Source: Mycobacterium tuberculosis H37Rv (GTDB taxonomy: Bacteria > Actinomycetota > Actinomycetes > Mycobacteriales > Mycobacteriaceae). Taken from it: a DNA stretch of 32,000 bases. Position 1 is the stretch's first letter. Each line of letters starts with the position of its first letter. The translations under genes and the position numbers were made by a program. This document shows, piece after piece, positions 18,536-18,822 of this stretch. The stretch lies in the NCBI RefSeq assembly GCF_000195955.2, contig NC_000962.3:1320001-1352000 (forward strand), read 5' to 3'. Under the pieces are notes generated by a model that was not told the origin of the DNA, searched no databases, and saw nothing but the letters and a program-made list of their open reading frames with translations.

Positions 18536-18548
18536 GTGCAATTTGCAC
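18536..18548. promoter_or_regulatory. 13-bp palindrome GTGCA-ATT-TGCAC, copy 1 (candidate operator)
   Basis: Perfect 5-3-5 inverted repeat in the context gcggGTGCAatTTGCACac. It occupies about -23 to -35 relative to the Rv1194c start/TSS. Confidence 0.6.
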
Positions 18549-18657
18549 ACTATGTTGGCACTATTGTGCCGGATTCACACTGCACGGCCGGTGTGTGCGC
18601 GAAATCACGGTGTGGGTCTGCTGGATGAGTCGACCGTGTTGAACAACTTGCGACACA

Positions 18658-18670
18658 CCGCAATTTGCGA
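18658..18670. promoter_or_regulatory. Degenerate palindrome cCGCA-ATT-TGCGa, copy 2 (candidate operator)
   Basis: Shares the GCA-N3-TGC core with the other copies. CGCAA-T-TTGCG (18659-18669) is itself a perfect palindrome, and an extra TTGCG half-site lies at 18648-18652. Confidence 0.45.
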
Positions 18671-18747
18671 AATCCGCCACCGACCGGGCATAGTAACCCA
18701 GCTAGTCGTCGTTGTCGCGTCGAACCACATGGTGAACTGTGCGGCGG

Positions 18748-18760
18748 GTGCATTTTGCAC
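18748..18760. promoter_or_regulatory. 13-bp palindrome GTGCA-TTT-TGCAC, copy 3 (candidate operator)
   Basis: Perfect 5-3-5 inverted repeat. The flank gcggGTGCAttTTGCACa is nearly identical to that of copy 1. Confidence 0.6.
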
Positions 18761-18809
18761 ATCAAGTGGGCGCTGATTGGGAAGATTTACCCTTCGGCGG
18801 CGGCGGTAG

Positions 18810-18822
18810 GTGCAGATTGCAC
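18810..18822. promoter_or_regulatory. 13-bp palindrome GTGCA-GAT-TGCAC, copy 4 (candidate operator)
   Basis: Perfect 5-3-5 inverted repeat, 17 nt downstream of the only nearby plus-strand TANNNT (TACCCT, 18788-18793). Confidence 0.6.

Follow-up and report, generated by a model that had tools for sequence, protein, structure and literature searches.

The Rv1194c/PE13 intergenic region

Within the window, the 32-kb stretch of DNA that was analysed, Rv1194c and PE13 are divergently transcribed and separated by an intergenic region of 489 bp. Rv1194c encodes a transcription factor of the PucR/MabR type, and PE13 belongs to the operon PE13-PPE18-esxK-esxL (Rv1195-Rv1198 are co-transcribed, PMC3254194). 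All three exact copies of the palindrome GTGCA-N3-TGCAC in the window lie between the two genes. The features, with strand where one was assigned, are as follows:

17248-18513, minus strand: Rv1194c, PucR/MabR-type transcription factor of the 'Rv1453 family' (Pfam, NCBIfam and structure matches)
18513-18525, minus strand: leaderless promoter core of Rv1194c, with its start at the G of the GTG codon (18513) and -10 TAAGAT at 18520-18525
18536-18548: site A, GTGCAATTTGCAC, exact motif at -35 to -23 of the Rv1194c promoter; candidate autoregulatory operator
18566-18578: A', GTGCCGGATTCAC, weak and tentative candidate site with two mismatches, 30 bp from site A
18594-18609: CRP (Rv3676) site TGTGCGCGAAATCACG, a match to the GTG-N8-CAC pattern, separate from the palindrome family
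18658-18670: CCGCAATTTGCGA, 'fourth copy' of the preliminary description, unsupported as an operator of the palindrome family
18748-18760: site B, GTGCATTTTGCAC, putative distal operator of the conserved pair, centre at -136 from the main PE13 start
18777-18792: element M, TTGGGAAGATTTACCC, conserved degenerate site, centre 31 bp from B and from C
18810-18822: site C, GTGCAGATTGCAC, putative proximal operator of the conserved pair, centre at -74 from the main PE13 start
18848-18890, plus strand: PE13 main promoter, with conserved block TTGACCTGTTGC, -35-like TTGCGG at 18856-18861, non-canonical -10 ATCATT at 18878-18883 and start at 18890
19003-21290, plus strand: target operon, from ORFs: PE13 (19003-19302), PPE18 (19349-20524), esxK (20659-20955) and esxL (21006-21290)

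A pattern search placed the three perfect repeats exactly where the preliminary description had reported them, and found no further exact copy in the 32 kb. Shuffles of the stretch gave a mean of 0.11 copies, and 0 of 100 shuffles gave three. The three exact copies are not a chance occurrence. Across the window, neither the relaxed motif (up to two mismatches, 18 matches versus 25 expected) nor the core GCA-N3-TGC (12 versus 17 expected) was enriched. The copies at 18536 and 18748 have the flank GCGGGTGCAWTTTGCACA in common, as had been noticed, and are embedded in a 50-nt direct repeat with 70% identity. The extended operator consensus reads tGGTGCA-N3-TGCACCa.

Other elements originally grouped with the palindromes fared less well. 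The supposed fourth, degenerate copy at 18658-18670 differs at 4 of the 10 specified positions, each of which is at least 89% conserved in operators of the regulator family, and it ranked 83rd of 31,979 positions when scored with the family matrix. Its inverted-repeat form is retained in M. decipiens alone, the surrounding block being partly retained in two more species; the strong sites number three, not four. Of two 'related pairs', GGCACtattGTGCC (18557-18570) is not conserved across species and has a background-level matrix score. The second, TGCAC...GTGTGTGC (18581-18598), adjoins the CRP-type site, with which it has five bases in common. Two weaker phased elements, M and A', were absent from the original list. 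A' ranked 34th of 31,979 positions by position weight matrix (PWM), with a positional counterpart, GGTGAAATCTTCACC, in M. lacus and M. riyadhense. Element M, ranked 154th of 31,979 positions, has a weak PWM score on its own; it takes the form TTGGGAAGATTTcACC in most species and is a perfect palindrome, GGTGAA-TAT-TTCACC, in M. basiliense.

The sites were positioned relative to published transcription starts. For Rv1194c, the start site 1338513 is flagged 'L' in the supplement of Cortes 2013, where the printed -50 to +1 sequence equals that of the window. A TAnnnT hexamer at -12 to -7 is retained in 12 of 12 Rv1194c orthologues. Site A overlaps the -35 of this promoter, so that its occupancy would block RNA polymerase; its position is suited to autorepression. 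The main PE13 start, 1338890, has a strong signal and leaves a leader of 113 nt, and further starts in the region lie at 18701(+), 18682(-) and 18950(-) (Cortes 2013, Shell 2015). The PE13 promoter block is conserved in 12 species, and a promoter scan found no sigma-70-like consensus there. Its core is free of operators and its -10 hexamer is poor. PE13 mRNA falls 7- to 20-fold in starvation and 13-fold when CRP is missing, with Rv1194c mRNA nearly unchanged.

Relative to the main PE13 start, the centres of B, M and C lie at -136, -105 and -74, in steps of 31 bp (about three helical turns each) that total 62 bp and keep all three on the same face of the helix. B and C fall inside the minor transcript from 18701, upstream of the main start, in positions suited to activation. 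The -74 centre is not a canonical class I position, and activation was deduced from position alone.

Conservation, phasing and association with a regulator family

Orthologous loci were located by homologous-protein search, followed by retrieval of the contigs encoding the proteins; a direct scan of genome contigs with the Rv1194c protein found no relative. A search with the PE13 protein returned mainly environmental PE proteins of 99 aa rather than recognisable paralogues from M. tuberculosis. The footprint set comprised the regulator-PE intergenic regions of 12 Mycobacterium species, including M. leprae, and in all 12 a PE-PPE pair is divergent from the regulator gene. In M. leprae and M. 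lepromatosis, whose genomes are reduced, the regulator ORF is intact.

Phylogenetic footprinting, which the preliminary description had proposed as a check, showed the palindrome pair to be conserved across these regions, of which the palindromes are the sole invariant blocks. The ten specified bases of site B are invariant in all 12 species. Site C is exact or has one mismatch in 11 of the 12, and is decayed in M. uberis. The 49-nt stretch between B and C has a mean identity of just 54%, so that the sites stand out against a diverged background. B and C are 62 bp apart in 10 species, 63 bp apart in M. leprae and 73 bp apart in M. basiliense, where 11 extra bp, one extra helical turn, fall between B and M. 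The neighbouring intervals show no such constraint, ranging over 210-502 bp and 149-219 bp. Judged from these sequences, the B-to-C spacing is under selection and phase-locked.

Site A behaves differently. Its position is shared by M. decipiens (one mismatch), M. lacus and M. riyadhense, and it is decayed in 8 of the 12 loci; autoregulation would thus not be universal. The A-to-B distance takes the values 212, 320, 278 and 257 bp. A lattice of about 30.5 bp joining A through C in M. tuberculosis was considered and rejected, as the A-to-B distance is not phase-conserved elsewhere.

In about 178 kb of mycobacterial DNA, exact copies of the motif were confined to the upstream regions of family regulators, or to a duplicate, with the exception of one in M. 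uberis (L007:7516). One-mismatch copies about 5 kb away in several loci were discarded; they lie within the coding sequence of an aldehyde dehydrogenase, where the protein accounts for their conservation. The region of the ESX-5 core genes PE18/PPE25-27 in M. basiliense contained no copy of the motif. A scan of 185,579 species genomes for the B-C pair pattern returned at least 120 stretches, mostly chance matches in unrelated bacteria. Among the matches listed, four were named Mycobacterium (M. gastri, M. gordonae, M. leprae and M. lepromatosis), all with 62- or 63-bp spacing, and these four stretches alone encode a relative of Rv1194c. The pair pattern is, on this evidence, locus-specific.

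The single motif has a wider distribution. The paralogues Rv1453 and Rv2370c have the same palindrome in their leaderless promoters, at about -35 to -22, and in Rv1194c, Rv1453 and Rv2370c alike it lies 20-22 nt upstream of the GTG start, followed by TAnnnT at -12 to -7. The Rv1453 promoter has an exact copy, GTGCACAGTGCAC, in the same position as site A. The original description of the motif as confined to the Rv1194c/PE13 region thus applies within the 32 kb but not beyond it, where it also occurs at these paralogues and at environmental relatives. For the latter, 70 distinct upstream regions were taken from metagenomic family members, which are 42-76% identical and in no case adjoin PE/PPE genes. 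An exact motif was found in 40 of the 70 and a one-mismatch copy in 13, with a mode at -33/-34; 17 had no motif. The best runner-up among all 1024 palindromic 5-N3-5 patterns occurred in 1 of the 70, and background sequence outside the upstream regions gave 0 exact copies in 368,870 positions. In these relatives a single operator sits mid-way in a divergent promoter region of 20-60 bp. The motif thus co-occurs with family members at a fixed promoter position in independent loci, and follows the regulator family, not the PE genes.

Rv1194c and related regulators

Rv1194c matches the Pfam families GGDEF_2 (PF17853, 4.2e-13) and HTH_30 (PF13556, 1.9e-11), and scores 699.9 bits against the NCBIfam equivalog NF050824, for which the cut-off is 600. 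The palindromes are therefore adjoined by a gene for a protein with a C-terminal PucR-type HTH. In the AF2 model (pLDDT 74), the C-terminal part matches the C-terminal domain of MabR (9f80, E 4.8e-7), which is the model's top PDB match, and also 3onq, and the N-terminal part matches the globin domain of DosC (4zva/4zvb) with a probability of 0.99-1.0 and a TM-score of 0.54-0.59 (target length). As modelled, Rv1194c has the three-domain layout of MabR, globin-like, GGDEF-like and HTH, an architecture also listed for it in PMC11617747. A single-sequence search of the PDB with Rv1194c gave one spurious lectin match only, while the family profile matched 9f80 with an E-value of 8.5e-4. The DNA-reading surface is a shared one: among 20 family members, no change occurs at six HTH residues (L363, H366, R367, N368, T369 and R373).

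A literature search found no binding or genetic experiment on Rv1194c; the TFOE transcription-factor list does not include this regulator, nor was it seen in the available part of the ChIP-seq tables. Its closest studied paralogue is the clofazimine-associated regulator Rv1453 (PMC8478341, PMC10580819), a member of its NCBIfam family with 62-63% identity. In that work, sites were guessed from the B. subtilis PucR box, and the upstream regions of qor and Rv1455 were tested with refolded protein; the GTGCA-N3-TGCAC palindrome is not mentioned.

The operators of better-characterised relatives are different. MabR (Rv2242), regulator of the fasII operon, has the same globin-like, GGDEF-like and PucR HTH layout as its paralogue Rv1194c, and forms dimers and tetramers that bind a palindrome (PMC11617747). 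Its sequence identity to the Rv1194c family is low, as the profile E-value above reflects, and its operator, GTTTTGTTGGTTATATACAAAAA, is unrelated to GTGCA-N3-TGCAC in sequence and in half-site spacing. Direct comparison of the MabR 23-mer (TTTTGT...ACAAAA inverted repeat) with GTGCA/TGCAC found no half-site in common. B. subtilis PucR, PutR and AdeR belong to the same HTH family, PF13556; the inverted repeats of PutR and AdeR are 17 and 24 bp, and PucR is both activator and repressor (PMC7652997). The PucR box, WWWCNTTGGTTAA, is non-palindromic, unlike the sites here. It does not occur in the intergenic region, and its only match in the window (up to two mismatches) is at 13169. The array would thus be PucR-like in its working, but its operator is a different one from the PucR box and from that of MabR.

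The closest parallel in layout is GabR of C. glutamicum, a PucR-type activator of gabTDP (PMC7652997). As with Rv1194c, its gene is divergent from the target operon. GabR, an octamer, binds strongly only when both of two intergenic inverted repeats, situated upstream of the target promoter, are present, and the same region contains a cAMP-CRP-type (GlxR) site, as a CRP site is found here. Unlike Rv1194c, GabR has no GGDEF-like domain. Its repeats are of 21 bp and span -87 to -23, whereas those at PE13 are of 13-17 bp, span -136 to -74, and lie 62 bp apart with an additional midway element. The GabR target is a catabolic operon; that of the present array is an operon of PE/PPE/Esx secretion substrates.

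Proposed operator function and alternative explanations

The comparative evidence (conservation, spacing and paralogue promoters) indicates that the array is the operator set of the local PucR-type regulator, in agreement with the earlier proposal of a multi-operator control region for a dimeric HTH protein, with Rv1194c as a candidate. The palindromes are very probably docking sites for the protein family of Rv1194c. Which paralogue binds, its oligomeric state on the DNA and the sign of regulation, we infer as follows. Dimers of the Rv1453 family, of PucR/MabR type, would recognise tGGTGCA-N3-TGCACCa, and at PE13 the likeliest binder would be Rv1194c, the product of the adjacent divergent gene. 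Occupied site A would exclude RNA polymerase from the Rv1194c promoter, giving negative autoregulation. B-M-C would most likely recruit a higher-order oligomer (a tetramer or larger, as for MabR and GabR) that activates PE13-PPE18-esxKL. A ligand sensed by the N-terminal part, through either its globin-like or its GGDEF-like domain, would presumably set the activity of the oligomer, which would act alongside CRP. We assign a probability of about 0.75 to this reading, in which autorepression is combined with an activating array.

A much less probable arrangement has the same operators and the same family, but with the array repressing. An oligomer would bridge A with B, M or C, or coat B-M-C, until released by a ligand, and so silence the starts at 18701(+), 18682(-) and 18950(-) or the whole region. 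Site A is indeed at a repressor position, the mid-promoter single operator of the environmental relatives is a typical repressor layout, and B, M and C lie downstream of 18701(+) and 18950(-). Rv1453 has also been published as a repressor of qor. However, no match with up to two mismatches occurs over the core and leader of the strong PE13 promoter (18823-19002). The A-to-B distance is not phase-conserved, and A is lost in 8 of 12 species while B and C persist. Characterised PucR regulators are mostly activators (PMC7652997), and in the TFOE data for Rv1453, three genes go up and none down. Activation by B-M-C, with repression limited to site A, is therefore preferred.

It is improbable, though compatible with binding by Rv1194c and not exclusive of it, that a paralogue (Rv1453, Rv2370c or Rv1429) is the main binder at PE13 within a cross-regulated network. 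The invariance of the HTH residues among the paralogues and the presence of the same operator in their own promoters would allow this, but the B-C pair always adjoins an Rv1194c orthologue in the 12 species, M. leprae and M. lepromatosis with their reduced genomes included.

Binding of the palindromes by an unrelated regulator, Rv0485 or CRP, is very improbable, although both of these inputs clearly matter for PE13. In papers citing Goldstone 2009, Rv0485 (ROK family) is reported to modulate pe13/ppe18. PE13 is 13-fold lower in a crp deletion mutant, and CRP ChIP-seq peak 153 has its site centre at 1338601.5, 88.5 bp from the start site 1338513. This published site coincides with the CRP-type sequence at 18594-18609, between A and B, and the ChIP summit (18602) is off A, B and C. 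The CRP(Mt) operator, TGTGA-N6-TCACA, resembles the palindromes in its outer GTG...CAC symmetry but has N8 spacing versus their N7; the palindromes are not CRP(Mt) sites. Moreover, neither regulator would explain why the motif follows PucR-family genes at loci without PE/PPE.

It is scarcely credible that the palindromes serve as hairpins in RNA or DNA, whether as attenuators, processing sites or cruciforms. Each palindrome can form a stem of 5-7 bp (-5.3 to -6.6 kcal/mol), and B and C are inside the minor transcript from 18701, but both are upstream of the main start. Comparison of the 12 species, and of more than 50 family loci, shows a variable 3-nt loop between half-sites that are invariant and do not covary. 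Folding of the region was not better than that of shuffled sequence (z = -1.48), and neither an Rfam match nor a terminator-like site was found, so that the palindrome region has the marks of neither a structured RNA nor an intrinsic terminator.

As an operator array, it is of an ordinary bacterial kind. ESX-5 substrates are the products of PE13-PPE18-esxK-esxL, an operon whose control has hitherto been known just indirectly, through Rv0485 and CRP. PPE18 (Mtb39A) is half of the M72/AS01E vaccine antigen, and the array suggests how the gene for such an antigen may be controlled. A concrete cis-element, conserved from M. leprae to M. tuberculosis, is now added to these inputs, together with a named local candidate regulator. 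We found no report linking these palindromes to the regulator family of Rv1194c. The motif may have gone unnoticed because the large overexpression set lacks Rv1194c, as do the ChIP-seq tables in the part available.

More tentatively, and with greater doubt than confidence, a broader scheme may be drawn, in which Rv1194c, Rv1453, Rv2370c and perhaps Rv1429 derive from a regulator of a flavin monooxygenase, retain a common operator, and have become a dedicated ligand-sensing control of the genes for PE/PPE/Esx antigens, surface-borne as well as secreted, in pathogenic slow growers. At PE13, a tetramer or octamer put together on the phased three-site array would then integrate a small-molecule or redox signal with cAMP-CRP, and so time the production of PPE18.

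The extended motif is also the first evidence-based operator consensus for the Rv1453 family as a whole, Rv1453 included. A C-17T change upstream of Rv1453 has been associated with clofazimine resistance, and it falls between the palindrome and the -10 hexamer of that promoter.

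Exact palindromes in the Rv1194c-PE13 gap

The intergenic gap between Rv1194c and PE13 is 489 bp long. Published promoter sequences were identical to window 18513-18563 (reverse strand; Rv1194c) and 18840-18890 (PE13), so that a window coordinate plus 1,320,000 gives the H37Rv coordinate. A preliminary description had placed three exact GTGCA-N3-TGCAC palindromes in the gap, and all three were read back correctly from the window.

Genes and palindromes
17248-18513, reverse strand: Rv1194c, 421 aa
18536-18548: site A, GTGCAATTTGCAC, exact GTGCA-N3-TGCAC
18748-18760: site B, GTGCATTTTGCAC, exact GTGCA-N3-TGCAC
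18810-18822: site C, GTGCAGATTGCAC, exact GTGCA-N3-TGCAC
19003-19302, forward strand: PE13 (PE gene), then a PPE gene, esxK and esxL

A pattern search confirmed that the 32 kb holds no further exact copy. The three matches compare with a mean of 0.11 in dinucleotide-preserving shuffles, none of which reached three copies, in keeping with the rarity first claimed for the pattern. A chance origin of the palindromes is excluded. Loosened patterns were not enriched across the window: allowing up to two mismatches gave 18 matches against 25 expected, and the bare core GCA-N3-TGC gave 12 against 17. This indicates that the signal lies in the full 5-3-5 palindrome. The flanks reported as common to the copies at 18536 and 18748 are real, and form part of a 50-nt direct repeat, 70% identical, that encloses the two. 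An Rfam search of the gap gave no match, and a scan found no consensus promoter or terminator-like site there.

Other elements of the preliminary description did not hold. A degenerate fourth copy at 18658-18670 lacks four near-invariant positions and ranked 83rd in the window by matrix; its inverted-repeat form is kept in M. decipiens only, and the block partly in Mycobacterium sp. ML4 and M. gordonae. Given its weak rank and poor conservation, it was dropped as a family operator. It would fall at +12 to +24 of the transcript from a minor Rv1194c start, 1338681/2, whose -10, TACTAT (18690-18695, reverse strand), is perfect and recurs in M. decipiens. Of two related inverted pairs, GGCACtattGTGCC (18557-18570) is not conserved across orthologues, and that at 18581-18598 abuts the CRP site and has five bases in common with it.

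The palindrome at promoters of the regulator family

Rv1194c scored 699.9 bits (cut-off 600) against the NCBIfam equivalog 'Rv1453 family transcriptional regulator', and the MabR architecture (globin-like, GGDEF-like, HTH) is common to Rv1194c, Rv1429, Rv1453 and Rv2370c (PMC11617747). The best match of its AlphaFold model (pLDDT 74) was the MabR C-terminal crystal structure (E 4.8e-7), and in a fold search the N-terminal part matched the DosC globin domain. Six HTH residues were invariant in 20 family members. Upstream of Rv1194c, GTGCAAATTGCAC lies 22 nt before a GTG that is the mapped leaderless start, and is followed by TAAGAT. For Rv1453, GTGCACAGTGCAC, a sequence found in a published ChIP table, lies 20 nt before the GTG start and is followed by TACTAT; it was confirmed on an M. 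tuberculosis contig (L209; L-numbers denote fetched loci with their own coordinates). For Rv2370c, GTGCACAACGCAC, with one mismatch, lies 21 nt before the GTG and is followed by TAGTCT.

Eighty metagenomic loci, whose family members are 42-76% identical to Rv1194c, supplied 70 distinct upstream regions. The palindrome was exact in 40 of these and had one mismatch in 13 more, in most cases beginning at -33/-34 and followed by TAnnnT and then the start codon. As a non-circular check, all 1024 palindromic 5-N3-5 patterns were enumerated; GTGCA-N3-TGCAC occurred in 40/70 regions and the runner-up in one. Symmetry of the family operator extends to tGGTGCA-N3-TGCACCa. Outside the upstream regions, no exact palindrome was found in 368,870 positions, and no PE or PPE gene occurred in any of the 80 loci. 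It is thus the regulator gene, rather than the PE gene, that the palindrome tracks, as an operator belonging to the family would be expected to do.

Of the solved relatives, MabR is closest to Rv1194c, but its operator is unrelated to the palindrome. Two papers on Rv1453 took the B. subtilis PucR box as the source of their candidate sites and do not mention the palindrome (PMC8478341, PMC10580819); that box is absent from the Rv1194c/PE13 region. A published C-17T change upstream of Rv1453, associated with clofazimine resistance (PMC10580819), affects one of the 8 nt that separate the operator from the -10 hexamer in this leaderless promoter (L209:3269-3291).

Gene arrangements around family members varied. 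The regulator was divergent from an FMO/EthA-like flavin monooxygenase (~520-550 aa) in 22 of 63 environmental loci, among them L132, L140, L143, L146, L148, L150, L159, L172, L180 and L204, with a single shared operator in a gap of only 8-140 bp; this arrangement may be ancestral. Rv2370c and a 61-aa PE gene (L128:4621-5000) are divergently arranged, with one operator, the mismatched GTGCACAACGCAC, in the 194 bp between them, and so form a third regulator-PE pair of the same layout; this locus adjoins hrcA and dnaJ. In L209, a near-perfect duplicate of ~200 bp (L209:440-760 and L209:3100-3420) lies upstream of a second PE gene, presumably PE_PGRS27. It contains the PE_PGRS28-Rv1453 intergenic region with its exact operator GTGCACAGTGCAC and -10 (TACTAT), together with the initial 12 nt of Rv1453, so that the operator of the family precedes the start codons of two PE_PGRS genes by 119 bp.

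Conservation in 12 species

Orthologues of Rv1194c (70-88% identical) were present in M. decipiens, M. basiliense, M. lacus, M. riyadhense, Mycobacterium sp. ML4, a simiae-labelled assembly and M. uberis. A scan for two palindromes 35-65 bp apart, with one genome per species, added M. gastri, M. gordonae, M. leprae and M. lepromatosis, all at the Rv1194c-PE locus; among the matches listed (at least 120 stretches), these four were the only named Mycobacterium and the only ones encoding an Rv1194c relative. The orthologue was divergent from a PE-PPE pair, with a palindrome in the gap, in 12/12 species. Phylogenetic footprinting upheld the palindromes: all ten specified bases of site B were invariant in all 12 species, and site C was exact or had one mismatch in 11, being decayed in M. 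uberis, against 54% mean identity for the 49 nt separating them. The B-to-C start distance was 62 bp in ten species, 63 bp in M. leprae and 73 bp in M. basiliense, and the flanking intervals ranged over 210-502 bp and 149-219 bp.

Exact copies in ~178 kb of mycobacterial DNA were confined to regulator-adjacent regions or a duplicate of one, bar one in M. uberis. This copy, GTGCAGTGTGCAC (L007:7516-7528), is ~4 kb away from the regulator, in a stretch with no long ORF, and may be what is left of a decayed paralogue's promoter. Recurrent one-mismatch copies 5 kb off were set aside, being inside an aldehyde dehydrogenase gene and maintained by protein sequence.

An Esx-type (WXG100) pair follows PE-PPE in M. 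tuberculosis and M. decipiens only, among orthologous loci with readable gene content; in M. leprae two small unverified ORFs take its place, and other genes follow in M. basiliense, M. lacus, M. riyadhense and sp. ML4. Since these genes differ between species, it is the PE-PPE pair itself that remains as the array's conserved target.

The palindromes are a genuine, strongly conserved operator array, and sequence comparison indicates that it very probably belongs to the adjacent PucR/MabR-type regulator Rv1194c. The original proposal of a multi-operator region with Rv1194c as candidate binder is supported by the family promoters that the motif marks and by conservation of B and C. It is an ordinary operator system, but useful because of the operon controlled and because it supplies the operator missing for a whole regulator family. 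The literature searched mentions Rv1194c, with nothing on its regulatory role, and gives no report tying a PucR-type regulator to PE13, PPE, Rv2370c or Rv1429, though other journals may; within it, the operator consensus and the tie to PE13-PPE18 are unreported. The 206 transcription factors of the published overexpression set do not include Rv1194c.

Promoter geometry and other inputs

Start sites were taken from two independent maps (Cortes 2013, Shell 2015).

Transcription starts and weaker elements
18513, reverse strand: Rv1194c start, leaderless
18890, forward strand: PE13 main start, strong, 113-nt leader
18556 (reverse), 18563 (forward), 18681/2 (reverse), 18701 (forward), 18950 (reverse): minor starts
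18777-18792: element M, TTGGGAAGATTTcACC, conserved block in the alignment of the B-to-PE interval
18566-18578: A', 30 bp from site A; M. lacus and M. riyadhense have GGTGAAATCTTCACC at the corresponding position

The suggested overlay on published starts placed A at the Rv1194c promoter, covering -35 to -23, and B, M and C upstream of the PE13 start, centred at -136, -105 and -74. The centre of M is 31 bp from both B and C; these spacings put the three at three-turn intervals on one helix face. In M. basiliense, M is a perfect palindrome, GGTGAA-TAT-TTCACC, and the extra 11 bp sit between B and M (42 + 31), so that the single natural change in B-C length adds a whole helical turn. Two sites 31 bp apart also occur upstream of some environmental relatives. 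Among 31,979 window positions M ranked 154th and A' 34th by matrix; both are weak by score, and are candidates by positional conservation.

Position against the starts suggests that occupancy of A would autorepress Rv1194c, and that the B-M-C array would activate PE13; C. glutamicum GabR is the closest analogue in mechanism. Site A is decayed in 8/12 orthologous loci, with the -10 hexamer and leaderless start kept, so the conserved function is that exerted at B and C. Repression by the array in place of activation, the operators being real in either case, is unlikely, though the most credible of the alternatives. The PE13 promoter has a non-canonical but conserved -10, ATCATT, and a TTG-type -35, with a TTGACCTGTTG block (18848-18858) just upstream conserved in all 12 species; no operator-like sequence (up to two mismatches) was found over its core or leader.

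Occupation of the PE13 palindromes mainly by a paralogue of Rv1194c is improbable. Binding by an unrelated regulator linked to the operon, Rv0485 or CRP, is very improbable. In a published crp deletion mutant PE13 and PPE18 were ~13-fold lower and Rv1194c unchanged, and Rv0485 is reported, according to papers that cite the work, to modulate pe13/ppe18. CRP, however, binds elsewhere: the motif of ChIP-seq peak 153, centred 88.5 bp from start 1338513, is TGTGCGCGAAATCACG at 18594-18609, off A, B and C. Its spacing is GTG-N8-CAC against GTG-N7-CAC in the palindromes, which were rightly described as not CRP-type. Rv0485 would leave the motif at PucR-family promoters in loci and organisms without PE/PPE unexplained. 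With Rv1194c as the binder, published starvation data, in which PE13 falls at least 7-fold and Rv1194c mRNA is little changed, imply that its activity, not its amount, must vary, or that other factors dominate.

A role as RNA or DNA hairpins is unlikely, since the stems are invariant without covariation in 12 species, the folding energy of the region does not stand out from that of shuffled sequence (z = -1.48), and both B and C precede the main PE13 start. A separate inverted repeat at 18879-18919 (19-nt arms, 74% complementary) spans that start; its core, GTTCGTC-ACCG-GACGAAT, is a predicted hairpin at the mRNA 5' end in M. tuberculosis and M. decipiens, and the CAGTTCGTCACC block is conserved in all species. 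M. uberis (L007) and M. leprae (L088) carry tandem duplications of a TTTAACCT(g/a)T element just upstream of the PE -35, the element that in the window reads TTGACCTGTTG at 18848-18858. Bordering the conserved block that precedes the PE13 -35 is a T6 homopolymer tract (18844-18849); tracts of this kind in M. tuberculosis can vary in length.
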